This document shows positions 631 through 64,000 of a stretch of 64,000 nt of DNA, one piece after another; the stretch's first letter is position 1, and the number at the start of each line of letters is the position of its first letter. Both the position numbers and the translations under genes were made by a program. The stretch is from Raillietiella orientalis (taxonomy: Eukaryota), in contig JAYWIR010000049.1 in NCBI GenBank assembly GCA_036172245.1, forward strand, positions 62,001 to 126,000. Reading direction: 5' to 3'. The notes below the pieces were generated by a model. The model did not search any database. It was not told the origin of the DNA and worked only from the letters and a program-made list of their open reading frames with translations.

Positions 631-843
631 TCACACGGATTACGCCGGGGCGTTTATTGTAAAATAAACTTCTACAAAGAAGTACGGTGGCTGGACCATT
701 GCTCCAGCCACGCACAAAGAAACAGAGCCGGCCGGGTCACCGGTTCGCGGACCGGTACGGTCCACCACGGCAGCAGGGGGAAGGGGGAAAAACAAAAAAC
801 AAAACAAAAAAGAAAAGAAAAGTTGGGAGGGTAAGGGAAGGGA

Positions 844-3800
844 TCACAGTTGCTGGTGGGGCCGTCGCATCCTTTGCAGAATGCCGGCAAGCTCCTTCTG
901 TATTCCTGGATCCAGGTGGTGACATCGGGACGCCCTCCTCAGGAACTGGGAGGCTGGCTGGATAGCACCCTGGTCGCGTTGTGCTCTCGTAGCCTTGCTC
1001 CAAGCAGTGACAATCCCGCGTAGGCAGCACAAAGCTGCTAACGAGGCCGCTGGCCGGAGGGCGTTGGCAAAAAGAGGGCTTTCAGTGCGCCCTGGGGTTG
1101 TCGCAGGGGATTCCGATGGCCGCGGCAAAGCGAAACCAAAGGGGCCGAAGTGCAACACAATCCACTAGCAGGTGGGGGAGGGACTACCGTTCCCCACACC
1201 TGACGCAATTAGGGTCCACCGCACCCCAGGTACAGTGGTGTCGGCGGGCGTTGCAGGAAAGTCCCCAGTGCTGCAACAGGAGAGCCGACTCCTGCCATTT
1301 TAAATGGAGGGAGGAAGTGTTCATGAGCACCGGGGGCCACTTCAGATGTTCAATGGGAACATCGAGCGGCGCGCCCCAGCGCAGAAGTCCATTGGGAGGC
1401 GTACTCGGGGTCGCAGCATCTGTTAACTGGCCCGTCTTCCACTCTCCTATCTTCTTCTCCTTTCCGGAGATTGTTATTGTAACCACCCACTTCGCCGCAA
1501 CATCGCTGTTCCGATCTTCCATCAGGGAGGGCAGCGCAGCAGCGAGGGGGGTTCTTCCTGCCCACGCTCTCTTCTTTGGATCCTCCAGGATCTCGCAGAG
1601 CGTGCAACTTCTATAACCCCCAAACAGGAACCTTCGTTCCTGTTGGGAGCGTTGCATGCCGAACTGTCCCCACGTTCGGACGGTTTCCTGCAACCAGGCA
1701 CTACCGTTCAACGGGCGACAGGTGAGCAATCCTGGGTTTTTCCGATACAGCGCAGCCACCCTCCGTAGCTGGAGTCCGCATCGGTTGACGCGGCGACGGA
1801 GTGCAAGAAACGACGTCAGTCCCGTCTTGCCGGTGGTTTGCTGGAGAAGGAGACGTGCAGGGACGCACCAACAGGTGCACCACAACTCTAGAACGAGTGC
1901 CGACAAGCATAACTGGAGCTGAAGCTCCAGCCGCTATAGCGACAGGAGGCCCAGACTACCATCCCGACGAGGAGCTCACAAGTCCTTTAAGCGGACTCGG
2001 GCCCTCCCGTTGCACCAAAGAGCGATACGGAGGAGGTCCTTTGTCCGCTCTTCAATCCTCTCTGTGGGGGGTCAAACAAAAAGCAAGGGGCGGAGGAGAA
2101 GAGCCGCGAACGTGTTCCAAACCGCGGCCCGTTCGGGCATGAAAAACCTGCCGCCACGGAACGGGCTGATCACCGTCTCTACTTTTTGAAGGCAGCCGGA
2201 CCACGCTTCCGCGGGGGAGTAGTCCCCCAACGGCACACCAAGGTACTTGAAGTACCTCACCGTGGGGATCCCCAAATGGACCCAGTCCTGCTGCCCTGCC
2301 CACGCCGCACCAACTGGCATCACGGACGACTTCGCCCTGTTCACCGTAACTCCCGTTTCCCGATGCAGCAGGTCGAAGGACTCCTCGACCGCCGCAGCCG
2401 GGGTATACATAGGGAGCAGCAGCGGAAGGTCGTACGCGTATGCTGAAACGGCCGGCGTACCGGCACAGTCGTGCGGCAAGTGCGCTAGTGTTCCCCTGTA
2501 CGCTCTCAGTACCAACTCAAAGTAAGTACTGAAGAGCAAGGGGCTCAGGCTGTCTCCCTGCCGGATCCCACGCCGCACCGGCACGCCGTGCACGGTCTGC
2601 CCGCTGAAAGTAACCTTGATGAGCGCGTCGCGCCAGCAGGAGCGCAGATAGGCCACTAATGATGCCGCGAAGCCCAAGCGTCCCAGAAGCTCCAGAAGGA
2701 GATTCTGGTCGACGCAATCGAATGCTTTTCGCAAGTCGATTGCGACCGCAAGGGCTCCCTCCCCCACCCGAGCATGCGATCATTTGTCGGCGCACGCACC
2801 GGAATTCCGGCTGCCCCCCATGCTCCTTTCATGTTGGAGCTCTAGCGAGGTGGAAGCGTGGAACAGGTTCGCCTCCATGCTTCGCCCGGGAACAGCACAT
2901 GTCTGTTCCGGGCTGATGAGGATGTTGGCAACCCGTCCCAGACGCTCTGCTTAAACCTTAGCCAGCAGCTTTACGTCAGCATTCACTATTGTGATGGGAC
3001 GCCAGTTGTTCATGCTCCTCAGATCCTTTCCCTTAGGGAGGAGCCGCACCTTTGCCGAAAGAAACAAGGCGGAAACGTCACCTGTTTCGCGTATCAGCAA
3101 GGTGAGTTGCTGTACCAGGGGGGTAAGCTCAGCCGCGAAAGTTTGATAAAACTCCGCGGGCAGGCCGTCCTCCACTGGAGCCTTTCGCCTCTTGAGCTTT
3201 CCGATGGCCGAGAGGATCTCGTCCATCGTGAAAGGCTTGTCGAGGGTCTTTCTCTGCTCCTCCCCGATCGCGAAAGCGCCTTCCAGAAGCAGGAGTCGTA
3301 AGATGTTCCTCTCCGAAGGTGCCCTGGCATACAGGGAGGAGTAGTAACTCCGCAGCAGGCCGCAGATTTGGGCAGGTGCCGAGAGCTCCTGGCCCTGATC
3401 GTCCATTAAGCCGGCCGATCCGGAATGCGAGGCTTGCCTCTCGGCTCCCGCTTTCTATTCCGCCAGCCTGCGGATGTCGGGAATCCTGGCGTAACGGCGA
3501 GCCTGCAGGTAGGCTCGTTCGTTACGGACTCCGGTCCCAAAACTCGTAGGTAGGCGGTGCAGAGGGAAATGGACGCAGAACTCCTGGACCGACCGCTTGA
3601 AGCGGTCCCAATCTTGGAGTGTCCGCAGCCTGGAGCTCCGTATGAACGTGCGGAGATGTTCCGCCGCGTCAGGGAGCTTCAGTCATTCCCCTGGGAGACG
3701 CCACGCTGACGGGGGGGGTCCCTGTCGCGCGGATGGATCTCGAGGACAAGCGGGCGATGGTCGGACAGCTCGCACGGTAACTTGCCGCGATAGCCCACGC

Positions 3801-4420
3801 GAGGGCACAGGTGCTCGTCAAGAAACACGTGGTCAATGCTGTCTTCCATCCCCGGTGCACTGGCCAACAAATTACAGGTGTGCACCGCCATGCACACCTC
3901 GTTGACCAGGTCACGCTCGGGATTGTGCCCATCTGGTTTCAGGCGAACGTTGAAATCGCCTGCAACCAGATGGGCATTCCGCACGCCTGCTTCGGTGAGC
4001 CAGTCTCGCTAAGGGCAAGAAAAACTCTTTCCTCGCTTTCCTGTTCATCAGGTCCTTGCCGCTCGGTGCGTACACGTTCGTGACGATCAGATCGATCGAG
4101 TCGGACCACCTGAGAGTCAGCTGGCCTACACGATCGTGATCGTCGAACCGTACGCCGTGAGCCGCGGTCTCGACGGCTGGCCGAAGCAGCTAGGCGACAC
4201 CGCAACTTTTCGTACTCCCACACATGTACCATAGCCGTCCTCCGGAGATCCGTTCGATCTCTAGCGCTTGTTCTGCAGAGATCACGTGGATCTCCTGCAG
4301 CAGCGCAAGGTCGTAGGAATCCAGAAGGGCGGATATGTCTCGTCTTCTGCCGGCGTCTGTCATGCCGTTCACGTTTCAAACGGCGATGCGGAGACGACGG
4401 CGGGAGGAGATTCCCGGCAT
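844..4420 (-). pseudogene. A1 ORF2, APE endonuclease-RT-CCHC (broken)
   Basis: Fragments carry NVNG/LLQEIH, GDFN, SDH, KAPxEDGLP, NWRPIT, DLRKAFD, QGDSLSP, YAYD, KYLG and CVRCGER..H..C. Confidence 0.9.
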
Positions 4421-4434
4421 TACTGCTGGGAAGA

Positions 4435-6087
4435 TTAAGGTGTCGGGGAGCCCTCCTCTTGCGAGGCGGGCAAGATGTCCATGGGGGTTTCGGCCTTCTC
4501 AGGCACCTGAGGCACCTGTTCGGCCTCCACCCCCTCCATCTCCTCCGTGTCCGTGCGTGGGAGTCTCTCGGGCGACGGGTGCCGAGAGTTTCCCACGCTC
4601 ATGGCACCCTCGCTTGCGGAAGCCATCTCTTCCCCTTCGCTGGGGAGACGAGCTTCCTTGGCTTTGTAGACTTACGTCCAGCCTTCTTGCAAGGTGCCGT
4701 GGAAACGGAGTCTGCGTTTCCGGCCGCCACCTCGGGGTCGGAAGTGTGGGACTCCTGAGGGGAGGCCGGACTCCTTACGGCCTTCTTGCCAGCCATGCAG
4801 AGTTCTGGCTGCACCGAAGCTACCAGCTCCTCTGAGGCTCGCACGAAGGCTACGTCATCGATGGTGGTGTCGATGACGGACGCCGCCGCCGGCTCGCTCC
4901 CCTCGCTGTTGACTGTGTCAACAGAGGGGAGGTCGTCGGAAGCAGTCAGGTCTTTCCGGCAGCGTTCGGCAACATCGTGAACGCGTTCGACACTGACCCT
5001 GCACTCTTTAATAATCGCGCTACCCTGCTCTTTCTGCTTCTGTTGCTAGGCGATTTTCTTTTCCATCCTCCTCTTCTTCTTTGATTCTATGGCCGTTGCC
5101 ACTTGCCACCCAGTCTCCTGACCGGCTTCCTCAACTTTTTGGCGTTGGCCGCCGGGGTCTCGGGTGCGGCCTGGGTCTTGGGCGCGGGTGGCACAGCCTG
5201 CGCGGCAGCTTTCGCCGCCAGCCTTTTCTGCAGAAACCGGGCGCGTTTTTTAAGGTTTCTCTTGGAACCCACCCGCACTGCGACTTTTGGGCACACCTTC
5301 CTCGTGTGGCCCATTGTGCCGCATACTTGGCACTGCACATTGGGACACCTCTTTTTGAGGTGGCCCGACGTATTGCAGAAGCCACAGTATTTCGGCTTCC
5401 CCACATACCAGAGGTCGACGGTTTCGCCTTCGACCACCAGTTTGTGGGAAGAGTGGAGCCCTCCCGAACGGTCACGCGGGTAGCAGTGAGGCCGTGTTGG
5501 AGCCACGTGTAGTCCTCGAAAGGACTTACTTTCGTCCACTGCGCGTGGACCGTTCCTAACTGTTCCAAAGCGGCGCGACCCTGTTCTTCGCGCATTCGCG
5601 CGGTGACGCCTAACAGGTGGAACACCATGCTGCAGTCCGCCGTAGTGGGGAGGAGCCTGCGCGTCCCCATCACAAAGGGGGTTTTAAGCAGTCGTTGGGC
5701 CAGCTCTGCATGTTTGCAGATGACCTCAACGTACTGACCCTTGCTGCGGATGGTCATAGCGCTGAGCTCCTCCTCTTTCACATCGAGAGCGCGTATGCCC
5801 TTCGAGAAGGCACGCGCGCTCTCTAAAGAATATAAATTGCCTACCTTGTAGAACATAGAGGGGTTGTACCCCTCCTCTACATAGGCCCACAATTCCGCTG
5901 CGGCTGCAGGCGATGACGCCGTCTAAACGGCGCTCCACGCCCGCACTGCAGCATGAACCGATTTTGTAAAGGCGGATGCCTCCACATCCACCGCCACCGG
6001 GGGCGACGTTGCCACCGCCCCCTGGCTCTTCATCGTTTCTGAGGGCGGCGTTACCCCCTGGCCATCCCTGGTGGTCGCGTCAGGCAT
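4435..6087 (-). pseudogene. A1 ORF1, gag-like nucleic-acid-binding protein (frameshifted, stops)
   Basis: CGFCNTSGHLKKRC and CQVCGTMGHTRKVC knuckles (ORF 5087-5539); colinear with 29752-31407. Confidence 0.85.
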
Positions 6088-6197
6088 CGCTGCCTGATCG
6101 ACCACCGAGCCACACGACGCTTGCACTGGGATAGACTTTCTGGCACGAGGAGAACCGAGAAAACACGTCCACCCTGTAGCACGCAAGGCGGTCGATT

Positions 6198-8264
6198 GCG
6201 TAAACCAAAAGCTGCTTTTGGAGCTTATGGAACGCCTAGGGTTCCCTGCACATCTCCTGATGTATTTGCGCGCTTGCTGGCGCCACGCGCTAATCTGCAG
6301 CACTTTCAGCGGCTGCCGGGTGTATGGTATTCCCGTGCGTAGGGCATCCGACAGGGCGACAGCTTGAGCCCGTTGCTCTTTAGCATCTTCGTTAAGTTGG
6401 TGCTGAGAGCATACAGGGTGAACTTGGCCCCCTTGCCGAGCTCGTGCCCCGGCACGCCCGCCGCAGCAGCGTACGCCGACGATCTTCTGCTCTTGTTGCC
6501 AATGTCATCCTCGGCAAAGGCGGTCGGAGACTTCTTCGATCTGCGCAGCCGCGGGACCGGACTGCAGGTTAACAGCGCGAAGTCGTCGGTTGTGCCAATA
6601 GGTGCGGCGTGGGCAGGGCAGCAGGACTGGGTCAGTCTGGAGATCCCCACGGAGAGGTGCTTCAAGTACCTTGGTGTGCCGTTGGGGGACTACTCCCCTG
6701 CGGAAGCGTGGTCGAGCCGCCTCCAAAAAGTCGAGACGGCGATCGGCCCGTTCCTGGAAGGCAAGTTTCACTTGCCGGAACGGGCCGCGGTTTGGAACGC
6801 CTTCGCGGCCCCTATTTTCCTCCTCTTGCTTTTTGTTTGCCCCGCCACCATGGAATCGACGAAGAAGACAAAGGACCTTTTCCGTATCACCCTTTGGGGC
6901 AAGAGGAGGCCCCGAGTACCTCTGAAGGACTTGTGCGCTTCGCGTCGGGACGGCGGTCTTTACCTCCTGACGCTGGAGCGCGTGGAGAAGCAGCTGCAGT
7001 GGCGAACCCTCGCCATCGCAGCGAAGATGTGGAGCACCCCTTGGTGCACTCCGGCCCGCCTCCTGGCCAGCCGTGTGTCCCGATGCGATGGACTCGCATC
7101 TTTTCTTGTGAGCCGTTGCCGGAAGATGCAAAGATGCGGCCTACTGATCGGGCGCATGGCAACATTTGCCAAGGAGAACAGCTGGATGGTTTGCTGCCCC
7201 GCCAACTCCCCCGCCTAGCTGGAGGAGAATATTGGAACGTGTTCAGCGGTTAAGCAGAGGAGCCACGAAACGTGGAATCGTCTCCGATGCAGCCCCTACG
7301 CCCGCTGCACGCTGCGGAATCTCCTGGAGAGTCCAGCATGATGCACGTGGGCAGAGACGATTTGCCTTGCTACGGCGCTGCCCTTCCTGAGAAGGGCACT
7401 TCACAGCTCTAGGACGCCAAGGTGGCTAGTATGCTGCTGCATCGAGGGAAGCGAGAAGTTGATCAGCGGCTGGACAACAGGAGAACTGGTTGACGCCACG
7501 AACCCGAGCGTCCAGCCGCGAGGATTATTAAGATGGGGCGAGCTGCTCGCCATCCCCAGGGATGAGCTGAAGTGGCTCCCGGTAATGAAGGAATCCAGGA
7601 TCCTGCCCCTCAAGTGGCAAAAGTCGGCGTTGCTTTTGTTGCACTGGGGTCTACCCTGCAACGCGCGCCGCTTCCACTGGGCGAGGGGAGCTGTGGATCC
7701 TGCGTGTGGCAGGTGCGGGGAGCGGGAGTCGCTTCCCCACCTTATTGTGGATTGTGCTGCCCTCTGACCCCTTTGGGAACGGTTCGGGATCACCCTCGGT
7801 CTCCCTACAGGCAGCACCCCCAGGTACGTTCTTCGGCCCCTCTTCGTGGAGGACGCACTACAGCCCGCCGCAGCCATCGCAGCCTTGTGCTGCGTCCGTG
7901 GCAACGTGGCGGCATGGAGCGACGCCAACAACGAAGGAGTAGGTCCACAGGCGAGGTATGTCATCTTGTATGCCCAGCGCTTCATGCGAAGAGCTGCCGG
8001 ATGGCCCCAACTGGGGAATATGCAGACAGACCTCGAGGGCTTCGTAGGACGGATGGGCCCTTCTCATAGCGACCAGTGATCCCTTCCCTGCCCTCCAGCT
8101 TCTTTTTGTTTGTTTGTTTTTATTTTTCTTTTTGTCTTATCCCCATCCTCCTTCGCTGTCGAGGAGTGCCACGCCGGGCTGCGTTCCGGTGTCCGGACAG
8201 GTCCTGCGTCTACGGCCGTGGTGGGGCCTCGTACCACGCATGTAGGGTTTACGTACGTAGGTGA
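6198..8264 (+). mobile_element. 3' half of a lineage-B element (B1): RT C-half, CCHC, 3' UTR. The first ~230 nt are G-type and the terminal hairpin is deleted.
   Basis: ORF 6364-7218 has YADD and KYLG; stop at TGATCCCTT 8077; UTR matches 24152-24360 and 41239-41445. Confidence 0.85.
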
Positions 8265-11004
8265 CAACGCCGAATCCCCGGGGCAGACGTTGTACAGGGA
8301 ACTGTTCGCAGAACTCCCGGCCCGAGTCCTTAAATAGGACCCAATGCGCGAGACTCTGGAGGGTGACGGCTCGCAGGAATTCGCGAAGATGTTCTTCCGC
8401 TCCTGAAAGGCGCGTGCAGTCCCCTGGCATACGCCAATCCCTGGATGGCGGTCCCTTGTCGCGCGGGCGCATCTCGAATAATAACCGGGAATGGTCCGAC
8501 AGCGTCGATTTTAAGTGTCCCTCGTTTTCCGACCCGTGTGCACAGGTCTTCGTCGAGGAAGACGTCGTCCACGCTGCTGACCATCCCGCTTATTTCTGTC
8601 AACAAGTTGCGCGCCCGCATGGCGTCACACAACTCGTTGATCGCCTTCCCCTGTGCTCCGGGCTGAGCTGAGAGCAGACGGACGTTGAAATCCCCTGCTA
8701 TCAGATGCGCCTTTCGCACGTCCGAGTCCACCAGCCATTCGCGCTTCAAGGTTTCCAGTAACGCGTTGCGCTGCTGGTATCCCTGTTTACCGCTAGGAGC
8801 TTACACATTGGTGACGATGAGGTCGATCGAATCGGACCATCTGAGAATCAGTTGGCCGATCCGTCCGTCGTCTCCAAAGCGCACGCCCTTCACGGCCGCG
8901 TTAATGGCTGGCTTTAGGAAGAACGCGACCCCCCAAGTGTTGCGGGCGCCGCATCGCCAGTACAACCGCCCTCCCGCGATCCTTTCGATCTCCTGGGCGT
9001 CTTTTGCGGTGATCACATGGATCTCCTGCAAAAGCACCAGGTCGAAATCTCGCACGGTGGCGGCTGTATCTCGTCTGTTTCCGTCGTCGCGCAGCCCGTT
9101 AACATTCCAACTGGCCGCGTGGATCCGACGGCGACAGGCGAGTCCAGGTGTTATTCCTGGGAACCTGGCGGTGGTGCTCCCGCCACCTTTTGGGGCGGGT
9201 CGCTGGACGGGGTTGGCGTCTTGCCGACCAACTCCCCATCCTTCTTACGTGCCGACGTCTCCGGCTGCCCGTGCGAAGGGAGTGTTGCTCGTACCTGTTG
9301 GCCCACATCCATTGGTGTGGGTGGTTCAGGTTCGGCGGTTTCAGAGGGCATTGCTGACCCCTGGTTACCCTCCTCCATTGGAGTCTCCTCCTCGTCGGCT
9401 TCCGCACGTGGGTGATGCCCGAATTGGGCTCCCACGCTGCCATCCACTGGTTCCTCCACCATTAAATCCCCCTCGCGCGGAGGCGGATTGCACCTTCGGG
9501 GTTTCTGGGATTTTCGCCCCGCTTTCCTTGGTGGTGCTTCCGCAGAAGAGGATGCACTTCCGGCCTCCAGGTCCGACTCACCTGCGGGGGCCACTTTAGC
9601 CGCTGCCGGCCTACGCAACCCCTTTCGCGAAGGGTTCTCGCGTTCGGCAAGCGTTGCCGCAAGCTCATCGGCGGCCTTCTCGAAGGCTGCGTCCTTGGTT
9701 TCGGCGATTTGGTCGTCCGGCTGACCCTCTTCGCAAGCAGGGGGTGGGTTTTCGCGCGCATTCGTCGCGGCGGGAAAATCGATCGAAGCCGTATCGCCTC
9801 CGGTGGTGTCGACGGGAACGTCAATGGGCTCCAGCGTAACCGTGCATTCTCGGAGAGTTTTTACGCGCTACACGGATTGAGCTTTGGTTCCGGCCGCCGC
9901 CTTCTCTCCTTTCTTCGGGACATGCTTGTCTTTTTTCTCTTTTTTGGCTTTGACTAGCTGCCAGCCCTGTTCTCCCTCTGCGGTTTCGGGAAGATTTTTC
10001 TCCGATGCCGCGCTTGGAGCTTGGGTTATTGGCAGCTTTTCTCGGCCAGTTTCACGCTTTTCCAATTTTTCTTTCCCCGCGCGTTTCCCTTGCGCCTTTT
10101 TGGCGGCCGAGCAAATTGGGGTGGGGCGTTTAGGGCACACGCGACGGACGTGTCCCTTCTCCCTGCACTAGTAGCATACGATGTTTGGGCACCACTTTCG
10201 GATGTGTCCGACCGCATCGCAGTAGCCGCAATATCGTGGCTTGCCCGCATACCAGAGGTCTACCGCTTCTCCCGCGACCTCAAGTTTGTGGGGTAGCTTC
10301 GCTTCGTCTTTTGGGGTTACGCGTGCCGCGGCGAGGCCCCCGAAGTGGCGTCCGTAGCCCTCAAAGATTGTGGGCTTCGGCCACAGCGCGTGTACGTCCC
10401 CGTACTTACTTAATTCTGCTTTTACGGCAGTGCGCGTCATGCGCTTGGATATTCCTGTCAAGTGGACAACTACCGAGTGGTCCATTGACACCGGGAAGAT
10501 CTTACGGCCGTCCATGATCAGCGGGGTATTTATAAGGCGATCGGCTAGGCTGATGCTCTTGCACACCAGCTCAACCCGCTGCGCCCCGCTAAGCACGCAC
10601 AGACCTTCCAGATCTTCCTCACGGACATTAGCATATTGAAGTGCTCTGCTAAAAGAGCGCGCCGTGTTTCCTTCAAACAAAGGGCCTACCTTGTATATAA
10701 ACGATAACTTGTATTCAGAGGCCCGATAGGCGGCTTCCTCGGCCATGGCCTCCGCACAGGGGGCGGCGACCATTTCACTCCAAGTCTTCGCCGGCTGCGA
10801 AGACGTTCCAAGGACTATAGCCCCCATAGCTGTAGGTCTTGTGGAAGGACTTGCCTCCCCACAACTACATCCATCGCGGTGTCCTCTGGCACGGCTGCCA
10901 TAGGACACCGACGACTCACACTTTACGCCTGACTACACTAAAAACTCCGGTTGCTTCCCAGACAAGCGCTGGCGGAGCGACCAAAAAACACGTCCACTCG
11001 CCAA
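8265..11004 (-). mobile_element. 5' half of a B-like element (B2): ORF1 (~10901-9151) plus EN, cut at RLPRGFG
   Basis: GGACGTG at 10989-10995; CGYCDAVGHIRKWC knuckle; WNVNG, LLQEIH, GDFN; ends at REFCEQFPVQRLPRGFG. Confidence 0.85.
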
Positions 11005-11018
11005 GGGATTTGGCGATG

Positions 11019-24110: not shown

Positions 24111-24151
24111 ACAGTTCCCTGTGCAACGTCTGTCCCGGGGAATCGGCGTTA
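24111..24151 (+). pseudogene. About 40-nt remnant of the host ORF2 into which B4 inserted
   Basis: Reads QFPVQRLSRGIG and is nearly the reverse complement of 8265-8305. Confidence 0.7.
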
Positions 24152-27490: not shown

Positions 27491-27491
27491 A

Positions 27492-41224: not shown

Positions 41225-41238
41225 GGGAGTCGGCGTAG

Positions 41239-49291: not shown

Positions 49292-50134
49292 AAATCGAAT
49301 GCCTTATGGAGGTCGACTGCGATTGCTAAGGCCCCCTTTCCCGCATGAGGGTCCCTACCCTGTGCCACTGGCGGCCCCAAAGTAGGGTTGCAAATTTTCC
49401 CTTTCCCTTCTTTCTTACTCCGCTGCGCGTGTATCCATGTGCTCGCGAAGAAGAGGTTGTCCTCCATGCTTCGCCCGGGAACAGCGTAAATCTGCTCCGG
49501 GCTAATTATGGAATTGGACACCTGCCCCAATCGCGACGCATACAGCCCGGCAATCAACTTGGCGTCCGTGTTTACAATCGTGATCGGACATCAATTGCAA
49601 AATTTCCTGAGGTCTCCTCTCCTCGGGAGGAGCCTCACTCTGGCTGACCGAAACGAGGCGGGAACATCGCCTTCGTCTCGGATTCACCTTGTCAACTCGA
49701 GCACCAGGGGGGCCAGCTCTTCCGCGAAACTCTGAAAGAACTCCACGGGCAAGCCGTCCTCCCCTGGCGCCTTACGCCTCTTGAGCCTTTTGATACCGGC
49801 GAGAATTTCGCCGGTAGTGGAAGGCTCATCGAGGCTTTCTCTCTCCTCCTCCCCTATCGCCACGGAACCACTCATGAGCAATCGCCGCGAAGCGTCTTGT
49901 TCGGGTGGTGTTTTGGCGTAAAGGGAGAAATGAAAACACCGCACGAGATTCCGTACCGCAGACGGGGACGAACGTTCCCGGCCCAGGTCATCCAGCATGC
50001 TGGCTGACCCGGATTGTCAGGCTTGTCGCTCGGCTCCGGCGCGGTATTCTGCCAGGCGACGGACACTGGAGTTCCTCTCGTGACGACGCGCGTGCAAATA
50101 CGCGCGTTGGTTGCGAGCCTCTTCGCCGAATCCC
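49292..50134 (-). pseudogene. B-like ORF2 fragment (B6), between the GFG and KAFD sites
   Basis: GFGEEARNQRAYL..KAPGEDGLP..DAKLIA..AVDLHKAFD. Confidence 0.85.
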
Positions 50135-52793: not shown

Positions 52794-55134
52794 TACCCGG
52801 GTGCGCCGGGACGTTTATTCTCACGAATAAACCTATACAATCTGTGACTGGACCAGTAGTCCAGCCACGCCCTGGAAAGATATAGCCTGCCGGGCTACCG
52901 GTGCGCAGACCGGCGCGGTCGACCTCGGCAGCAGAGGGGAGGGGGAACGAAACAAAAAGAAAACAAAAAATAAACAAAAATCAGGGAGGGAGCGGGAAGG
53001 GATCACAGTCTGCTGGGAGGGTCCGTCATCCTCTGGAGGATGCCGGCAAGCTGTTTCTGCTTGTGTGGTTCCAGATAGGGCCATCGCGTCGCCATCCTGA
53101 GGAAACGGGCGGCATACACGTTGGCATCCCTGTCGCTGGATCCTCCCGTCGCTTTGCTCCATGCCACGACGATCCCGCGTAGGCAGCACAGGGCTGCAAG
53201 CGAGGCCGCTGGAGGCAGGGCGTCACGGACGAAAAGGGGGCGCAATGCGTCTCTGGGATTGCTTCCGAAGATCCCCAGGGCTGCGGCAAAGCGTTCCCAC
53301 AAGGGACGGAGGGCAACACAATCCACTAACAGGAGGGGGAGGTATTCCCTCTCCCCGCACCTGACACAATTAGGGTTGACACCCCTCCGCGTCCAGTGGT
53401 GTCGGCGGGCGTTGCAAGGAAGCCCCCAATGCAACACCATCAGAGCCGACTTTTGCCACTTCATGGGGAGGGTGCGTGAGTCCATGAGCACCGGGGGCCA
53501 CTCGAGATGTTCCTCTGGAACATCCAGTAGCTCTCCCCAGCGCAACAGTCCATTTGGGGTGGTCCTCGTGGTCGCATCGTTGGTGAGCTGACCCGTTCTC
53601 CAATCTCCGATGTTCTTTGCCCTGCTGGCGATCTTGACAGTAACCTCCCATTATGCCGCGAGGTCGCTGCCCAGATGTTCCTGTAGGGTAGGCAGTACCG
53701 CAGCTAGGGAGGTACTTCGTGCCCACGCTCTCCTTCGGGGATTCTCGATGATTTCTCGGAGCGTGCGGCGGGCATGCGGCCCGAACAGAGCTATTCGCTC
53801 GTGTTGCCGGCTCTGCTCCTGAATCATCGCCCATGTGCGGAGGTTTCCTGCAACCAGGCAGGGCCGTTCGCGGGGCGTACGAGGATCCGCACCGAGTTGT
53901 TCTTCACGAGCTTGGCCGCCCTCCGAAGTTGAAGTCCGCAGTGGCAGATGGGGCTTCGGAGTGCAAAGTAGGACGAGAATCCCGCATTGCCGGTGGCCCG
54001 CTCGACCAGGAGACGTGCAGGGAGGCACCAAGGGGTGCACCAATTTTCTGCCATAAAGGTAACAACTCGGAACTGGAGCTGTAGCTCCAGCCGCTCCAAC
54101 GTCAGGAGGCCCAGACCACCATCCCGACGAGGAGCGCACAAGTCCGAAAGACGGACTCGGGGCCTCCCTCTGCCCCAAAGGGCGATCCTCAGGAGGTCCT
54201 TCGTCCTCTTCTTTGACTCCGCTGAGGGGGGCCAAACAAAAAGCAAGGGGCGAAGGAGGATGGCCGCAAACGCGTTCCACGCCGCGGCCCGTTCATGCAG
54301 GAAGAACCTGCCGTCCTGGAACGGGCCGATCGCCGCCTGAGCCTTCTGAAGGCAGCCGCACCACGCTTCCGCAGGGGAGTAATCCCCCAACGGCACACCA
54401 AGGTACTTGAAGTTCCTCACCGTGGGGATCCCCAAACGGACCCAGTCCTGCTGCCCTGCCCACTCCGCTCCGACTGGCATTACGGACGACTTCGCCCTGT
54501 TCACCGTCAGTCCTGTTCCACGACTCAGCAGGTCGAAGAAGTCCTCGACCGCCGAGGCCGGGGTGGACATAGGCAGCAGCAGCAGAAGATCGTCCGCGTA
54601 CGCCGAAACCGCAGGCGTACCGGGGCAATGGCACGGCAGGTGCGCCCGAGTCTCCCTGTACGCTCTCAGCACCAATTCGAAAAAGGCGCTAAAGAGCAGG
54701 GGTCTCAGGCTGTCTCCCTGCCGTATGCCGCGTCGCACCGGTACTCCGTGCACGGTTTGCCCGCTGAAAAGAACATTAATGAGCGCGTCGCGCCAGCTGG
54801 AGCGCAGGTGAGCCAACAAAGAGGCCGGAAAGCTCAAGCGTTCCAGAAGCTCCAGCAGGAGATTCTGGTCGACGCTGTCGAATCCTTTACGCAAGTCGAC
54901 AGCGACCGCAAGGGCTTCTTTCCCCACCCGACCGTTCCGTCTCCCGCCAACGGACGCACCCGAATTCCGGCTGCTCAATAAGCCCCTTCCTTGTTGGAGC
55001 TCTAACCATGTGGAAGCGTGGAACAGGTTTGCCTCCATGCTCCGCCCGGGAAAAGCATAAGTCTGTTCCGGGCTGATGAAGATGTTGGCAACCCGTCCCA
55101 AACGCTCTTCCCACATCTTGGCTAGCAACTTGGC
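52794..55134 (-). mobile_element. Lineage-J (A-related) element, 3' part, cut at AKL
   Basis: ORF 53824-55290 has DLRKGFD, QGDSL, YADD and KYLG; stop 53003; terminus at 52794-52819. Confidence 0.87.
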
Positions 55135-55224: not shown

Positions 55225-57246
55225 ATGGCAGAAATGCCTGAGGACACCGCGATGGATATAGGAGGGGGAGAGGCTTGCTCCTCTCCCCAACCCACGGAGG
55301 TGGGGGCAACCGCCCCCACGGAGGCGACGGCCGCCGCACCCCTGAAAAAGGGGGCAATTGCCGCCTCGGAAGCGAGGGCAAAGACCCCCTTGAAAAAGGG
55401 AACAAAAGCCCCGCTGGAACAGGGTGCAACCGCCCCCTTGAAAAAGGGGACAACCGCAACCCTGGAAAAAAGCACAACCGCCTCCTTGAAAAAGGGGGCA
55501 CCTGCACCCTTGAATGCGTCTTCGGCATCGCCGAAGGCCTGGAGTTCAGTGGCTGCAGCCCCATCTCCTGCAGCCCTCGCCGAGCAGAAAGCCTACCTGG
55601 AGCAGGGATACAAGCTGTCCTTGATATACAAGGTAGGCAATCTGTTTGTCGGGAACACCGCTCGTAACTTTGAAAGGGAGTTACAGCGGTTGGATGTTAA
55701 AGAGGAAGACCTGGAAGGTCTCTCCGTGATGAGTGGGGGCCAGCGGGTGGAGCTGATGTGCAAAAATGCAAGTCTGGCTCAACGCCTGCTGAACACTCAT
55801 ATCACTCTGGAAGGCCGAAAGGTCTTCCCTGTAACGGAGGACCGCTCCATTGTTGCCCACCTTACGGGTGTATCTCTTCGCATGACCAAAGCTGGCGTGC
55901 AGGAAGAGTTACAAAAACATGGTACGGTGCACGCGCTCTGGACCAAGCCCAACGTCTTCCAAACATACGGAAGACTGTTCAGTGGCATGGCTGCAGCGCG
56001 TGTGACGGTCCACGAAAACGGTGGGCTGCCCCACAAACTCGACGTCGGCAACGAGGTCGTCGATGTCTGGTACGTGGGCAAGCCCAAGTACTGTGGGCAC
56101 TGTGATGCAACAGGGCACCTGAAAAAACGGTGCCCCCACATCCAGTGCTTCCACTGCGGCGAAAAGGGCCACCTGCGAAAGGTGTGTCCTAAACGCGAAA
56201 CCCCGGCTCCCCCTGCTTTGAAAAAAGCCAAAGGGAAACGCGCGGGGCGATCGGACAAGCCTAAGGAGGCACCCGAGAGGCGGAACCCACAGCCAGAGCC
56301 CGAACCCGTGCAGCAAGCGCCGGTCGAGGGTACTCCCGACGACGCTGGAGAGAGCGAGGGCTGGCATATGGCTAAGCCTAAAAGTAAAAAATTCAAGAAA
56401 TCCGAAGAACCGACAGCGGAACCCGCGACATCTTCCTTAAATAGGAGACAACGCCGCGCGTTGCTCCGCGAATGTTCGGTCGCTTTGGAGCGAGTGGAGA
56501 TCCCCGAGACCTCCACCGGGGGAGATATCTCCCGCCTCGTTGACGCCGAAGCCGCGATCGAAAAAGGCGAACCCTCGGTGCAAACAGAGGGGGAGCCGAG
56601 CGACGCGCTCGCCGCAATCGAGGACGCCGCCTTCCAGCAGGCGGCGGAAGAGCTCGCGGCCGAACTCGCGGAGCGTGAGAACGGCGCGCGAAAGGCCTTG
56701 CGATGGCCGGCCGCGAGCAAGGCACCTCGGACAGGTGACCACGAACCGGATGCCGGAAGTGCGTCCTCCTCCGCGGAGGCGCCTCCGAAGAAGACTGGAC
56801 GGAAGTCCAAGAATCCCAAGAGGCGCATCCCGACAAAGAAGGAGGGGGACGCACCGGCATCCGAGGGGGAAGCCGGCAGCGTGGGAACGGAGGGAGGGAT
56901 TTTCCCACCCTCCGCTACCGAGCAACTGGAGACCCCCATGGAGGAGAGGGATAAGGTGAGTGATTGCCGCCCCCTCCCATCGGTGGAACCTGTCCAGGAG
57001 ATAGCCATGGAGGAGGAGGAGCAGACAGCTGACAATCGCTCCCCCCTGCCGTCCAACGCAGCCGACGAATCGGCCCCCATGGAAGAGGGGGTGCAGGTGC
57101 GTGAAACCCGCCCCCTTCAACCGTTGCGGTCCGCCGAGGAATCGGCCCCCATGGAGGAGGGAGAACCGGTGCGCGGTGATCCCGTTCCTCCATCCGTCCC
57201 GCCCGACCAGGTGGCGGGAACCCCATTGCCACTTTCCCAGGAGTAA
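55225..57246 (+). CDS. Intact ORF1 protein (gag-like; two CCHC knuckles; probable RRM-like region; acidic low-complexity tail)
   Basis: Open frame from ATG 55225; CGHCDATGHLKKRC and CFHCGEKGHLRKVC. Confidence 0.88.
   Translation: MAEMPEDTAMDIGGGEACSSPQPTEVGATAPTEATAAAPLKKGAIAASEARAKTPLKKGTKAPLEQGATAPLKKGTTATLEKSTTASLKKGAPAPLNASSASPKAWSSVAAAPSPAALAEQKAYLEQGYKLSLIYKVGNLFVGNTARNFERELQRLDVKEEDLEGLSVMSGGQRVELMCKNASLAQRLLNTHITLEGRKVFPVTEDRSIVAHLTGVSLRMTKAGVQEELQKHGTVHALWTKPNVFQTYGRLFSGMAAARVTVHENGGLPHKLDVGNEVVDVWYVGKPKYCGHCDATGHLKKRCPHIQCFHCGEKGHLRKVCPKRETPAPPALKKAKGKRAGRSDKPKEAPERRNPQPEPEPVQQAPVEGTPDDAGESEGWHMAKPKSKKFKKSEEPTAEPATSSLNRRQRRALLRECSVALERVEIPETSTGGDISRLVDAEAAIEKGEPSVQTEGEPSDALAAIEDAAFQQAAEELAAELAERENGARKALRWPAASKAPRTGDHEPDAGSASSSAEAPPKKTGRKSKNPKRRIPTKKEGDAPASEGEAGSVGTEGGIFPPSATEQLETPMEERDKVSDCRPLPSVEPVQEIAMEEEEQTADNRSPLPSNAADESAPMEEGVQVRETRPLQPLRSAEESAPMEEGEPVRGDPVPPSVPPDQVAGTPLPLSQE
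55335..55512 (+). repeat. 33-nt (11-aa) tandem repeat in the lineage-C ORF1 N-terminus (APLKKG-like); also at 1-165 (-)
   Basis: APLKKGAIAAS..KTPLKKGTKAPLEQGATAPLKKGTTATLEKSTTASLKKG. Confidence 0.8.
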
Positions 57247-57438
57247 CACCTGGGCTCGCCTGTCGCCGTCGATTACGCGTGACCTGCTGGAACGTGAACG
57301 GGCTGCGCGACGACGGCAACAGACGGGACACGGCCGCCACCCTGCGTGACTTCGACCTGGCACTCCTGCAGGAGATCCACGTGATCACCGCGGAGAACGC
57401 CCAGGAGATCGAAAGGATCGCAGGGGGACGGTTGATTG

Positions 57439-60400
57439 TCACCCGGGTGCGCCGGGGCGTTTATTATGAACTATCCGGGAACAGGGTTCCCGGACAAAGG
57501 GGAAAACAAGAGACGAAGGGGGTGGGATCCCCGACACGCAGGTCGGTATGCCGAAAGTCCGGAACTGGAGGGAAGGGACCACAAACACACTACTATATAA
57601 AAACAATAAAAGAAGAATATGGAGGGCAGGGGACAGGGGTCTTTGGTAAATCCGTTCCTTCCTTTCAAAACCGGCGATGGATGGCGGCGATCTCTCTCCT
57701 TACGCCCTGTGGCGGATGGGCCCACTGGGCAGCCGACAACATGTTTGCGCTGGCTAATCCAGTGGGCTGACGAAGGATGGCCAGCTTCTCCAACTTTCGG
57801 TGGGCCTTGTCGATGGCGCGGGTGCAACACACGGTTGCAACGACAGCACCCAATGACAGGCCGCCTGGCGTGAAGAAGCGTCGCATCAACTCCCTCGCGG
57901 TGTCCCCCTGGTGCAGGAGAGCTGAGGACAGCCTTCGCCAGAGTCCTAGAAGGGCACCGCAGTCCAGGAGCAGGTGCGGGAGCGTTTCCACTTCCCCGCA
58001 CCGCTTACAGTTTGGGGAGACGACTCCCCCGGAAACAAGGTTCGTGCGCTGGTTGGAGTGAAAACCCCAATGCACCAGCATGATGACGTCCTGCTTCCAC
58101 GAAAGAGGGAACACGGAAGTGTTCAAACAGGAGGGAGGGACCACAAGTTCTGTGGGGTGCACACTCAAGTGTTCACTCCACCGAAGGAGTCCCTTCGAGA
58201 TGTGGCGAGGCGTGGCGGCGTCTGCCAGCTCGCAAGTCCTCCAGCCGCCAATAGGTCGTGTTGTTCATGCAATGGTGCAGGCGACCTCCCATCTCGCCGG
58301 TTTGCAGCTGTCATCTCTTGCCCTGAGGGCTGACAGCGCGTCGGCGAGGGGCGTGACGGCCAGGCGAGTCCACTTCTCCTGGCTGTTGCACACCTCATAC
58401 ACCGTGCAGTACGGGGAGAGGTGAGCGCAACGGAGTTCCAGGAGGGAAACATCCTGGTGCTTTGCCTAACCATGCAACGGTTCCTGCCGCCAGGCTTGAA
58501 AGTTCGTTGGGCGGCAGGAGATCCATTCCTGGGCTTCCAGGAGCCGATACAGCGGTTTCAAGGGGAAACCGAAGCTTCTCGTGGCGCGCTCCGTGTGCGG
58601 CCGCAGCGACAGAAGTCCATCGCTGCCTGTGCAGCGCCGCAGAAGCAGGCGCGCGGGAGCGCACCACGGTGTGGACCAAAGGTTGGCGCACAGGGCCAAC
58701 ATCCGAAGCTGCACCTGCAGCTCGATTCTCTCCAGCGTCAGGATGCCTAAGCCTGCATCCCGACGCGGAGCCGCCAAGTCTTTGAGGCGGATCCTGGACC
58801 TCGCAGGTCCCCACAGAGCGTTCCTCAACAGGCTGTGCGCCTGGAGCTTGGCCGAGTAGGGGGGCGGGCAAACAAAAAGCAGGGGGCGCAAGAGAGGGGC
58901 AACGAAGGTGTTCCATATCGTGGCCCGCCCCGGCAGGACGAACCTGCCATGGTGGAACGGGCTCAGGGCATTCGAAGCCTTCCGAAGGCAGTCCGACCAC
59001 ACTTCCACTGGGCTGATGTTCCCCAGCGGAACGCCCAGATATTGCACGGAGGAAGCTGTCGGGATCCCCAGGCGGATCCAGTCGGACTGCCCCTCCCACG
59101 CCGCACCAATAGGTACGACCACGCTCTTGCTCCAGTTTACGCTCATGCCCGCTCCCCGGCGAATCAGCTCGAAGAAATCCTCGAGACTGGATGCCAGGGT
59201 GGTCATGGGTAAGAGGAGAAGCAGGTCGTCAGCATAGGCCGCCACGGACGGCGTTCCTGGACAAGAGCTCGGCAGGTTGGCCAGCGTCAGCCTGTACGCC
59301 CTCAGCACCAACTCAAAGAAGATGCTGAAGAGCAACGGGCTTAAGCTGTTGCCCTGCCTGATGCCCCGCCGCACCGGCACGCTGTACACGTGGCAGCCGC
59401 TAAAAGAGATAAAAATGAGCGCGTGGCGCCAGCAAGCGCGCAAATACGCCACGAGGTGCACCGGGAGACCGAGGCGTTCCAGGAGCTCCAGGAGGAGATC
59501 CTGATTTACGCAATCGAACGCCTTGCGGAGATCGACCGCGACCGCCAAGACACCCGGCGCTTCCCCAGGCCGAAAGCAGCGACGCCTAGCCTCGGCAGCC
59601 GCAGACGGGGTCGCTTGGCTGTCGTGAGCCACGCAGCGTTGCAGCTCGAGCCACGTGCGCGCGAAGAACAGGTTCGCCTCCATGGACCGCCCGGGAACAG
59701 CGTAAGACTGCTCCGGACTTACCACGGATCCAGCGATCCTGCCCAGGCGCGCGACCCACAGCCTGGAGAACAACTTGACGTCCGCATTCACCAAGGTGAT
59801 GGGACGCCAGTTGCTTAAATGGCGCATGTCTCCGCCTTTCGGCAACAAACGCACCCTTGCTGAGCGAAACGAGGCCGGGACATTGCCCGTCTCTCGCATC
59901 AGCGCAGAAAGCCTCAGCACCAGGGGGATGAGTTCCGCCGCGAAGCACTGGAAGAACTCCGCAGGCAGACCATCCTCACCTGGCGCCTTGCGCTTCTTGA
60001 GGCCCGCTATGGCGGAAGACACTTCTTCCGCCGTGAAGGGCAAGTCAAGAGTGGCGCGTTCCTTCTCGTCGACCGCCGGGGAATCCGCCGGCAGAAGCAG
60101 CTCCGAGAGACTGCGTTCCGTTGGCTCCCTAGCGTACAACAAGGAGTAATAGCGCTTTAGGAGGCGGCGAACTTCGGCCGCGCCCGAGCACTCCAGGCCC
60201 TGGTCGTCGAGCAGACAAGCTGCTCCTGACTGCCAGACCTGGCGTTCGGCCTTGGCCTTGTACTCCGCAAGGTACCGGACGTCCGGGCTTCGAAAGAATT
60301 GGCGGGCCTGCAGAAACTCTCTGCTGTTGGCCACGCCTTCCCCGAAGCCACGGGGAACCAGGCGCAAGGGGAACCGGCTGCAGAACTCGCGGACCGATCT

Positions 60401-62601
60401 TTTCAGATCGTCCCAGACCACGAGCTCTCGAACGGCAAAGGTCCGGAGATGCTAGCGGAGATGCTCCGCAGCCACCGGATTTCTCAACCAGTCGGCCGGC
60501 AACCTCCAGACGTGCGTCGGAGGGCCCTTGCCAGGCGGGAGTAGCTCAAACTCCAGCCTGTAGTGGTCGGAAAGCTCGGACGGCACGGGACCTCTTCGAC
60601 CCACCCGACAATGCAGGTGATCGTCGAGGAACACATGGTCCGGCAAAGCACGCATTCCGGGATCCTCGACCAGCAAATTCGAGGCGTGCACCGACGTGCA
60701 CACCTCGTTCACCAGCTGTTTCTCTTGGCGACGGTGAGACTCCTCCGATAGCGCGTGGACGTCCAAGTCCCCGTCTACGAGGTGAGCCACGTCGGGGCCG
60801 GAGTTGCTGACCCAGCGGTCGCGCAGTCTCTCGTGAAACTCCGCTTTCTCGGTGTGACGCGCGGAGCCGCTCGGCGCGTACACGTTCGTGACGACAAGGT
60901 TGATCGATTCGGACCACTTGAGAACAAGTTGGCCCACACGACCTTCCTCGTCGAAACAAACGCTCCGCACCGCTCCCGCCACCCTGCCCCGGACAAGGAA
61001 TGTGACTCCGCAGGTATTCTGGGAGCCTGACCTCCAATGGAGCGTCCCGCCTTCGCGAACTAGCAGATCGGCCGCTTGCTGCTCGGAGAGTGCGTGAATC
61101 TCCTGCAGCAGGGCCAGATCGAAGTCGCGCAAGACGTTGGCAACCAATCGCCTCTTCTCGTTGTCCTGCAGCCCCTTGACGTTCCAACAGGCCACTCGGA
61201 CGCGCCGGGAAGAAGCAAGACCGCGCATTGCTGCTACGGACATGGAGGTGCGTTCCTCGCCCCGTCCGGCGAGGTATCAGTCGGGAGCACGGGGGATGAG
61301 GTAGCGCATGCGCTTCCTGTCCCCGCCGCGCCGCTCGCGGCATGCTCGGTGGAGTCGAGGACCTTTGCCTCGGGTTCCGAGGAGCATCGGGAACCGTTCC
61401 CGGCATCAGGCTCTTGCCTGGCAAGTTTTGGCTTGCGCGTCGCCCTGGCCTTGACCGGGGCTTGGCGAGCCTTAGCGCTGCCCTCGGACTCCACCTCGGA
61501 GTCCGAATTGCGCGCGCGCGGCGGCGGGCGTTTCGGCTGCCTCTTTGTTTGCTGGCAGCCCGGAGCTGGTCCAGCACTCTTAGAGGGTGCCTTCGTCGCC
61601 GATCCCCCTTTCGGGGTCACGGCTTCGGCAGCTCCCCTCTCGCCGCGGGTGTTTGCGGCGGCGCGCGCGGCGGCAGCAGAGGCTTTTCCTTGCGCCTTTG
61701 TGGGCGCGCGGGGTTGCCTCTATACCCCGCCTTCCTTTTGGATCGGGAAGTTGGAAGGATCGCGCGGTTTGCGATCCTTCTTTCCCCCGACGAAGGTCCA
61801 GCCATCCTCGCCGCCTTCCTGTTTGCCCCGGTAGGGCGCGAGGGCTTCCAGGGTCCTTCGCATCCTTTCCAAGGCCTCGGATACGGCGATGGAGGCCAGT
61901 GTCTCCTTCGCCACGTCTGCCTTCTGCACCTCCTTACCGGGAGGTGCGGGCACAGTGGCGGGATTCTCGGGTGTCGCGCGAGGCTTTTCAGCCTTTGCTG
62001 GCGTTCGGCCCGGCGTGGCCGGCTTGCCTGTCGCGGGCAAAGGGGCGCGCGACCCCTTTTTCGACGCTCCGGTGGTCTTCCCGGGCGTGCCACCGCTATT
62101 TCGCTCCGGAGCGAGAGCAAACGGAAGCGGCGGTGGTTTTGCAGCCTGCCCGATGTTATCGGCGGGCTGGGTCGCTCGGGACTTCACTGAAGCAGCCTGG
62201 AGAAGCTTCTTGTCCTTTCGCGCGGGTTTTTGTGGTGCATTGCTCCGAGAATCGCCCGCGCAAGCGGACTTTTCACTTCTCCGCTGAGAATGCTCGTTCG
62301 CGCCTGATTTCTTCCCCGACGACGGGGCGGATGGAGTCGGCGCGGACGGCGCTGTTGCGGGAAGGTTTCTCGCCCTCCTCTTTCGTTTCAGCTCAGCGCA
62401 CTCGTTAATCGAGAGGCCGAGCAGCTTATAGTATCGGCAACTGCGTGTTGGTTACTTCCGCGGACGGTGGCCCTCCTTCCCGCAGTTGCCGCAAGCGGCT
62501 GTTTGCCCTGCAGACCGGAGATAGACGACGACGTCACCGAGGAGGATCTGCGAAGGCATGAGCCTCCGGTCGTCCATGGTTACGCGCGCCGTCGCAATTC
62601 A
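57439..62601 (-). mobile_element. Lineage-E element E3: ORF1 C-part, whole ORF2 (61243-57665) and 3' terminus
   Basis: Homolog of E1 and E2; CKRCGEVETLPHLLLDC; terminus at 57439-57465. Confidence 0.9.
57665..61243 (-). pseudogene. E3 ORF2, the least decayed pol in the window (EN 60452-61243; 651-aa open RT stretch 58466-60421)
   Basis: WNVKG, LQEIH, NVYAP, SDH; NWRPIT, DLRKAFD, QGNSLSP, YADD, YLG; in-frame stops at 60452 and 58466. Confidence 0.9.
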
Positions 62602-64000
62602 CACCCGGATGTGCCGGGGCATTTAATTCTTGGAAATGAAAATACATGAAATATCGCGTGGCGAACTCGAAGGTTCACCACTCCAAAACAGCTTGCTGGT
62701 TACCGGCTCCATGCCGGAGAGGTCCTTCCGATGCGCGGGGATGCGAAATAAATAAAAACAAAAAGCTCAAATGTAAGGGGAGGGGAACAAATGTTGCAGG
62801 GTGGGAGGGCGGGAAAGGGATCACAGTGCGCGCGGAAAGGTACTCTAGATCCTGTTCAGGATCCGCACAAGCTAAGTCCTTTCAGCGCCTTAGTGGCGCC
62901 ACTTGCAGACATTGCGCGCGAAAAGGCGAGTCCAGTGTAAGGCGTTGCCGGTTGGCTGACGCCTCCTTCTGGTGGCTTTCGAAGCCGCCACTATTCCTCT
63001 GATGCAACAGAGGACTGCTACACTAGCGGGCGGGGACAAGGCTTCACTACAGAAGAGGCGCCTTAAAACGTCCTTTAGACAGCATCCGCGCAAGTCCAGG
63101 ATCGCCGCGAAACGATCCCACAAAGGGCGGACGACTCTGCACTCCAGGAGAAGGTGGGGGAATGTTTCTGTTCCCCCACACCGGTCACAATTAGGATCCA
63201 CAGCCCCCGGGTGGTGTGGTGCAGGCGTGCTTTGAATGGTTATCCCCAGAGGACCACAAGCAACGCCACATCCTGCCACTTCAGGGCTAGGGATCCACTG
63301 TTCCAGGACGCTGGGGGCCACTACATCTCCTCCGGAGAAAGTCCGAGTAGCTCTCCCCAGGGTCGAATTCCGTTGAGCGGGACACTCGGAGTAGCAGCAT
63401 CCGCTAGCTGCCGAGATGTCAACGCCTTTATCGATTGTGTCCTGCCGCCTATGGTGCAGGACACGGTCCATTTCCCCTGCTCGCTACTGTCCCTGGCATT
63501 CACAAGGAAGGGCAGCACTGGGGCGAGGGGGGTTATCAAGGCCCACAGAAGCTTGTCGTGAGACTGCACGATCTCCTGCAGCGTCCAGCGGGCGTGCCTT
63601 TTCATACAAGTGTTCCTTGTGCCCGCCGGAACGTGGATCTTTTCCCAGGTGGAGACTGACTTGTGCAACCAGGCGGAGTAGCTCCCTGGGAGGCAGGAGA
63701 TCGAGGCGTTGTCCAGAACCGCAACGAAGATGCGTCGCAGCATAGACCCACAGTATGGTCTCCTGCAGACGCGCCCAGACAGAAACGACAAAAGTCCGCT
63801 GATTGCGCAGGCTCGTTGGGCCAGGAGGCGTGCTGGAACGCACCAAGGCGTGTCCCACAATTCCGCCGCAAGGGCGAGAGTCCTGAATCCAAGTTGTAGT
63901 TCCATGCGCTCCAGAGTAAGTACGCCAAGTCCACCGTCCTTACGTGGAGCGCACAAGTCTTTGAGCCTCACACGGGACCTCCCTTTGCCCCAAAGGACTG
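62602..64000 (-). mobile_element. Lineage-D element D2, 3' part, runs off the window
   Basis: Reverse complement of 16930-18331; terminus at 62602-62628. Confidence 0.88.

Follow-up and report, generated by a model that had tools for sequence, protein, structure and literature searches.

How does a long interspersed nuclear element (LINE) of L1-like make-up define its 3′ end when it carries no poly(A) tail? The question is raised by a 64,000-nucleotide (nt) stretch of the Raillietiella orientalis genome (contig JAYWIR010000049.1, positions 62,001–126,000; hereafter the window), which is a nest of decayed LINEs encoding an apurinic/apyrimidinic-type (APE) endonuclease, a reverse transcriptase (RT), a C-terminal finger and a zinc-knuckle ORF1. 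An earlier note on this DNA had described a "universal" 3′ terminus of these elements, consisting of AATAAA and a GC-rich hairpin ending in CCGGGTG(A) without an A-tail, and had proposed that it is a shared ORF2-binding or 3′-processing element. The window was analyzed together with the 210-Mb genome, to which all genome-wide counts refer; the copies seen are decayed and come from this one genome. A 257-residue actin exon gave its highest scores with cytoplasmic actins, Drosophila Actin-5C being first, which marks the host as an animal and probably an invertebrate.

A terminal motif shared by the LINEs of the window

The motif is present in all 13 coordinate ranges that had been noted. With a fuzzy pattern, the window gave 13 sites, whereas each of 30 block shuffles gave none. 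Nine copies lie on the minus strand (starting at 631, 11019, 20700, 24152, 27492, 41239, 52794, 57439 and 62602) and four on the plus strand (18306, 35173, 46683 and 49264); three match the consensus exactly and the other ten carry 1–3 substitutions. A strict pattern yielded 1,386 exact matches genome-wide (704 + 682), compared with none for the reversed control. Every window motif is located downstream of an ORF2 C-terminal region on the same strand, at a distance of 204–274 nt in 12 of the 13 cases; the copy at 27492 aligns with only part of this region.

By their 3′ untranslated regions (UTRs), the 13 motifs sort into approximately eight families. Across 22 families with at least two copies, the 150 nt upstream of the motif gave a median score of 0.38 (shuffled sequences, 0.33), compared with 0.85 for the motif itself, and the RT cores of motif-bearing families are 66–76% identical to one reference. 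The UTRs are therefore indeed dissimilar, as had been stated, and the retention of the motif across families whose adjacent UTRs are near background argues for selection.

The termini, given here with their tails, differ mainly in loop and tail. Family A is represented by 628–658 (minus strand; loop CGTAAT), 35173–35203 (plus; loop CGAAAT), 46684–46713 (plus; exact consensus) and the decayed copy 49264–49294 (plus), all with the tail AAAA, which in the last two is followed by antisense KAFD codons. Family B ends are found at 24149–24178 (minus; tail ATAA) and 41236–41266 (minus; tail ACTA). The remaining minus-strand termini are 11016–11045 (loop CGTAT, tail GCA(T); the end may be at 11017), 20697–20726 (CATAT, ACAA; in a recurrent antisense site of a sister ORF2), 27489–27518 (CGTGA, ATAA; in sense orientation in the GDFN endonuclease codons of a sister LINE), 52790–52819 (CGCAC, TCAA), 57436–57465 (CGCAC, ACAA; at the antisense endonuclease site that its family uses recurrently) and 62598–62628 (CACAT, TGAA). 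The plus-strand terminus 18306–18335 has the loop CACAT and the tail TAAA.

Precise position of the 3′ end

Using stem patterns, 150 loci were fetched from the genome, and 133 were retained after removal of one non-element and of duplicates. In 44 of the 133 loci, 10 nt or more of the post-motif sequence recur exactly upstream, compared with 45 of 2,397 pairs in a mismatched control; the 44 include a few tandem junctions, which are not duplications. The repeat begins at position +5, i.e. after four tail bases, in 25 loci and at +4, after three, in eight, the latter explained either by a tail of 3 nt or by a target that happens to begin with A. The mode of target-site duplication length is 14 bp. 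Within the tail, +3 is A in 130/133 loci and +4 is A in 122/133, +1 and +2 being family-specific, and the 4-nt register is the same for the tails AAAA, TAAA, GCAA, TCAA and ATAA.

Since the duplications set the element end, the terminus reads CCGGGTG-NNAA and the hairpin does not include the last base. The complete form, AATAAA-Y-G-Y-CCCGG-loop-CCGGG-TG-NNAA, thus ends 4 nt past CCGGGTG, and the end point given in the earlier note has to be moved accordingly. Shared sequence downstream of the motif had suggested that the motif might be internal; this was rejected, because the duplications show that the downstream sequence is a shared target site. Duplication-bounded insertions barely longer than hairpin plus tail were also observed (L054, L120 and L262). 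The short insertions seen are 5′-truncated LINE ends, some of which stop at the hairpin base. Both target-site duplications and 5′ truncations are found, as in LINEs of the L1 group (L1/Tx1).

Conservation of the stem

The stem was examined in 93 ends that had not been selected by it, from a set of 234 found with up to four substitutions. Its seven pairs hold in 81–97% of these ends, the bulged base is C or T, and the loops differ in sequence and length with the arms staying complementary, in agreement with the reported pattern of a largely conserved stem and a variable loop. AATAAA is exact in 74 of the 93. The stem is conserved as sequence; its folding in the RNA is inferred.

Sequence complementary to AAUAAA is present upstream in 31 of 72 clusters (15–17 for hexamers of the same composition), and a longest-stem test for masking of AAUAAA was flat (4.9 vs. 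4.7); a second hairpin that might mask the hexamer is weakly supported. No Rfam family matched the window at gathering score. In 20 loci, the sole Rfam match was to U4 small nuclear RNA (55.3 bits; L097:873–1001), at most approximately 500 nt from a LINE end.

Poly(A) tails: near absence and rare exceptions

None of 146 ends had more than five consecutive A's in its first 15 nt, and no copy with a 6-nt loop followed by NN and eight A's was found genome-wide with one mismatch allowed. The variable 3′ poly(A) tail of relaxed, mammalian-type L1 elements is not seen in this set. A genome-wide search for A-tails behind 5-nt loops gave 29 matches, six of which, from five independent loci (compared with 1,386 strict motif matches), carry runs of 9–15 A's. 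The absence of an A-tail therefore holds as a rule with rare exceptions, and the word "universal" was slightly too strong, given these five loci and one hairpin-less end in the window (see below).

The copies with A9–15 runs keep an intact or nearly intact hairpin and are thus no example of poly(A)-ending copies that dispense with the motif; they were found by the hairpin pattern, no search having been made for A-tailed ends without it. L262 is clearly duplication-bounded with a target that contains no A run, and L264 is probably likewise. Such loci could derive either from polyadenylated RNA cut one base after GUG or from RT slippage on a short A run. The base at +2 is A in all five, compared with 34/159 in the background, which leans, with a small number of loci, to slippage or an aberrant class and against one poly(A) common to all families.

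Target sites

The sequence after the tail is the target; it is family-specific, with hotspots in multiple host lineages, and sequence-specific insertion into other repeats is a trait shared with the Tx1 clade. For family A, 135 pattern matches were obtained, and by eye approximately 80 of the 100 listed continue, in antisense orientation, into KAFD codons of sister RT genes. With the 5′ end of family A as query, the KAFD site accounted for 29 of the 30 best matches, two of which have short flanks; the remaining match is a head-to-tail tandem. Co-duplication was rejected as the cause of this hotspot: 25 junctions fall into 13 host groups with no near-identical pair.

Other families have sites of their own. 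Two antisense endonuclease sites account for 9/9 and 8/18 junctions of the respective families, and six junctions are in sense orientation at the GDFN codons; some of these non-A hotspot junctions may share ancestry. Smaller hotspots (e.g. antisense 1940, with 7/9 in one host group) may likewise reflect shared ancestry by co-duplication. The family with the tail TCAA was seen at a fixed site of a dispersed repeat (L103, L114, L125, L130 and L132). This repeat carries what we take to be a tRNA-like B-box and is probably a short interspersed nuclear element (SINE).

Off-target family A insertions (n = 10, four of them picked as off-target, which inflates a Fisher test on these sites, so that no weight is placed on it) were used to examine which bases are preferred. 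TCG opens the duplication in 10/10. On the side beyond the reach of RNA-tail pairing, G is found at −4 in 9/10 and G or C at −1 in 10/10, and a preference on the side with which the RNA tail cannot pair points to protein readout.

Two further observations concern family A. Near-full-length copies are at KAFD in 29/30 cases, compared with approximately 4/10 of the short duplication-bounded copies from unselected loci, a bias that may be due to selection or to a 5′-homology step. Few of the 100 listed junctions, as judged by eye, enter family A's own KAFD variant, though intact sites of this type are common among those listed; self-avoidance is possible.

Endonuclease

The distance from the GDFN glycine to the IDH aspartate is 42–44 residues in 10/10 sampled copies, compared with 54–80 in 46 homologues. 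Relative to the L1 endonuclease (L1-EN) there is a 16-residue gap, which covers the strand leading into the βB6-βB5 hairpin. In the available text of one structural study, this hairpin of L1-EN is described as probing the minor groove (PMC1950540). An example is encoded at 52005–52682 (plus strand), with a GDFN–IDH spacing about 20 residues shorter than in homologues and most of the βB6-βB5 hairpin segment gone. The structure predicted from a 56-row alignment (mean predicted local distance difference test score, pLDDT, 93.7) matches 1vyb with a template modeling (TM) score of 0.79; a model from 10 rows was unreliable past residue 150.

Proposed mechanism and alternatives

At a probability of roughly 0.6, judged from sequence comparison, the motif is a clade-wide 3′ recognition element: ORF2p would bind the hairpin and start reverse transcription at a fixed distance from it. 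The RNA is predicted to fold into a 5-bp GC stem, extended by a G-U and a Y-G pair around one bulged pyrimidine and closed by a family-variable loop. ORF2p, bound to it, would begin target-primed reverse transcription at a fixed distance in the manner of a ruler, and with such a start no variable tail would be copied. AAUAAA is probably still a weak poly(A) signal whose cleavage site lies 1–2 nt behind GUG and which would in this way provide the invariant A's; the product at the DNA level would be no different if the RNA were instead read through or trimmed precisely. Target choice would be at least partly a protein readout of approximately 9 bp, family by family, and would place the copies in conserved codons of sister LINEs.

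Of the two functions named in the earlier note, ORF2 binding is the one favored here. The motif marks the 3′ end and was kept as the UTR diverged; its constant spacing of 4 nt from the duplication is consistent with a cis element that ORF2p reads, and a register that is constant with two to four A's in the tail is what a ruler predicts. Several observations weigh against this interpretation. The covariation for which the earlier note had proposed to test did not appear, with no compensatory cell in the 13 window copies and one in the 93 unselected ends, a search that allowed only four substitutions; the stem is nearly invariant, hence there is no covariation signal either way. Folding scores of 61-nt sequences (n = 10) were not significant (z-scores −1.7 to +0.6); the hairpin is part of the minimum-energy fold in about seven of the ten. 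A fourteenth LINE end in the window (8252–8267, plus strand) retains GGTG-ACAA but neither AATAAA nor the stem, for which a later deletion would be the simplest explanation. In the human protein, as far as the source is available, approximately 15 unpaired and 5 paired nt are needed between the stem-loop and the active site (PMC10830416); only 4–6 nt are available here, so the geometry must differ and would be closer to that of L2-type tails. As for the polyadenylation step, the A at +2 in all A-tailed loci fits short-run slippage better than a shared poly(A), and family A, whose targets start with T, has no long tails.

Part of the evidence would also be explained if a weak or masked AAUAAA were passed, so that the RNA carried the first bases of the donor's target duplication and paired with the nicked primer strand; the hairpin would then set the register, the read-through bases would help to choose the site, and each family would inherit its address. 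The family-specific bases behind the tail with the TCG of the off-target family A sites, the endonuclease without its groove-reading hairpin segment, the excess of upstream complements to AAUAAA, the element-borne variant shared among 5′ duplications and the one copy with a mosaic 5′ flank (both described below) are consistent with such a guide, as is the boost that annealing of 3′ read-through sequence gives to R2Ol in the accessible part of one report (PMC6530143). We nevertheless regard it as unlikely. The target preference extends beyond the reach of the RNA, the masking test was flat, no 3′ transduction was recognized among the duplication-bounded copies, and the host class shows no clustering when 60 family A ends are arranged in a tree (25 changes, compared with a shuffled mean of 28.4; a value as low was obtained in 17/200 shuffles). 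Its fullest form, in which an animal LINE clade has traded groove-reading by the endonuclease for RNA-assisted targeting, with a masked poly(A) signal, transcripts running into their own duplication, a 4-nt register held by the hairpin and pairing with the nicked strand, seems to us distinctly improbable.

The other function proposed earlier, 3′ processing alone, would mean that the hairpin together with AAUAAA determines where the RNA is cleaved or shields a trimmed NNAA-OH end, ORF2p starting at the last base without recognizing the hairpin. The hexamer is conserved approximately 21–25 nt from the end, which is the canonical distance; a host factor could likewise recognize a sequence that is invariant and does not covary, and long A runs are seen on N-AAA tails only, as expected if they arise by slippage on short ends. 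We give this explanation little chance, however, since family-specific loops suit a co-evolving ORF2p better than a single host factor, no Rfam family matches the window, and no mechanism of poly(A) removal is in evidence. It is least credible that the palindrome is recognized by its sequence, has its role in the DNA (as a cDNA hairpin or in a second-strand step) or is inherited without function. The lack of covariation and of significant folding energy would fit, and several 5′-truncated copies do stop at the hairpin base; yet the motif is retained where the adjacent UTR has decayed to background, which argues for selection, and both arms remain complementary around loops that vary in sequence and length.

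Full-length copies, flanks and relatives

Two full-length family A LINEs, both inserted in antisense orientation into KAFD codons, were identified in the window. The first (628–6181, minus strand; 5,554 nt; decayed) has an ORF1 with a zinc knuckle and an ORF2 with an RT, in a sister LINE as host. Its 14-bp duplication comprises the 3′ copy at 614–627, identical at 12/14 positions to the 5′ copy at 6182–6195, which carries a variant common to other full-length A copies. The second (29658–35203, plus strand; 5,546 nt) is flanked by duplications at 29644–29657 and 35204–35217. A C at position 5 of the 5′ duplication is shared by 6182–6195, 29644–29657, L167, L169, L173, L174, L183, L237 and L241, and is absent from the 3′ duplications wherever both were seen; its occurrence in 5′ duplications only suggests that part of the 5′ duplication travels with the element.

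Approximately 230 nt of the 5′ flank of the first element (6196–6420, minus strand; right boundary approximate) match another host lineage than the remaining flank: they are 83–95% identical to the host lineage of the 29658 copy, after which the sequence switches to the real host (80–100%). This mosaic may have arisen either by 5′ transduction with homologous joining or by gene conversion. The full-length family A copy at L190/L232 has its whole 5′ flank from one host lineage and its 3′ flank from another, probably through ectopic recombination. Head-to-tail family A tandems, formed by insertion at the 5′ junction of another A copy, were seen at L188/L230, L237 and L242. A 24-nt tandem repeat is present in the 5′ region of one family (1–163 and 55385–55514).

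In Pfam searches, ORF2 matched Exo_endo_phos and RVT_1 above the cut-off, zf-RVT being weak. ORF1 is separate and upstream of ORF2; its frames carry zf-CCHC, one of them reaching the Pfam cut-off. The best PDB match of the RT is human L1 ORF2p (E = 2e-25), and the motif-bearing elements are L1/Tx1-like LINEs. A metagenome protein (P0121, JGI) is 61% identical to the window ORF2 and, at the level of protein sequence, shows that the clade exists outside this assembly; the other strong RT-region matches listed, including the best named ones from ticks, fish and frogs, are at most 33% identical. No named Tx1 reference was among the homologues found in the RT-region searches. A protein-alignment scan of metagenome contigs for relatives confirmed none of 462 candidate stretches. 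The DNA pattern gave eight loci of bacterial appearance in metagenome contigs, none with an ORF2 match, which were taken as chance, and no match in viral contigs.

Comparison with known systems

The comparisons below refer to those portions of the cited sources that were available. The terminus resembles those of the stringent L2-clade elements ZfL2-1 and ZfL2-2 (zebrafish) and UnaL2 (eel), which likewise have a terminal stem-loop, read by ORF2p in their case, whose stem is general whereas its loop differs between families; in ZfL2, the stem is conserved and the loop is specific to the family (PMC4176376). As in stringent LINEs, a conserved 3′ stem-loop sequence adjoins the start of reverse transcription. 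The predicted stem here has one bulged pyrimidine; in UnaL2, too, a bulged base is of importance (PMC4176376). UnaL2 differs in belonging to the L2 clade and in ending in TGTAA repeats (PMC3747384), whereas the elements described here are L1/Tx1-like, with a fixed, unrepeated 4-nt tail and duplications of approximately 14 bp.

Within the L1 clade, conserved structured 3′ ends are known from the monocot LINE1-1_ZM lineage and from Chlamydomonas L1-1_CR (PMC3472496, PMC3747384), and tail-less families make up 9/233 in flowering plants and 5/15 in green algae (PMC3472496, Table 1). The stem of monocot LINE1-1_ZM is variable with compensatory changes, whereas the present one is nearly invariant and directly follows AAUAAA; L1-1_CR ends in poly(A), whereas no tail is copied here.

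The closest solved RT and endonuclease structures come from the human LINE-1 ORF2p/Alu system. A stem-loop helps to define the initiation site of human ORF2p (PMC10830416), in likeness to the ruler reading. Human L1 needs approximately 20 A's and copies a variable poly(A), whereas this clade copies two to four A's at a fixed register.

Elements of the Tx1 clade (Tx1L in Tx1D, Tx1-Mar in Mariner-N4_AMi, Keno, Kibi and Koshi) are likewise animal APE-RT-zinc finger LINEs whose ORF1 has a zinc knuckle and which favor other repeats (PMC4494074, PMC5203782). In contrast to the named Tx1 elements, the present ones insert into conserved codons of sister LINEs and into one tRNA-like repeat. The Tx1L endonuclease has the βB6-βB5 hairpin (PMC1950540), which the present endonuclease lacks, and the Tx1-associated SINEU elements end in poly(A), unlike the terminus described here. 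A further target-directed non-LTR (long terminal repeat) element, Dictyostelium TRE5-A, requires the 3′ stem-loop of its C-module for retrotransposition (PMC3159450); it finds its targets by position, via RNA polymerase III factors, whereas a short sequence inside other LINEs is the target here.

No account of this terminus was found in the accessible literature, including the available text of PMC7265360, PMC5203782, PMC12503042 and PMC3159450; Repbase, Dfam, supplements and most subscription papers lay outside this search, and an earlier annotation is possible. It is likewise not described in the available parts of two preprints (10.1101/2024.03.13.584159 and 10.64898/2026.09.17.752431).

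Implications

The terminus is real, precise and clade-wide in this genome, and represents a more exact version of a strategy that other LINE groups also use; stem-loop recognition as a basic idea is already established. Precise landing by an endonuclease without the βB6-βB5 hairpin raises the question of what reads the target, and RNA-assisted targeting, if true, would give each family a heritable and potentially reprogrammable address in conserved codons of its sister families. A homogeneous 3′ junction combined with sequence-specific insertion is what is wanted of gene-writing tools based on target-primed reverse transcription. With one stem, many loops, one 4-nt register and more than 1,000 genomic products, the approximately 30-nt terminus offers a test system, replicated by nature, in which to ask how an ORF2p of the L1 type chooses template and start site without a poly(A) tract.

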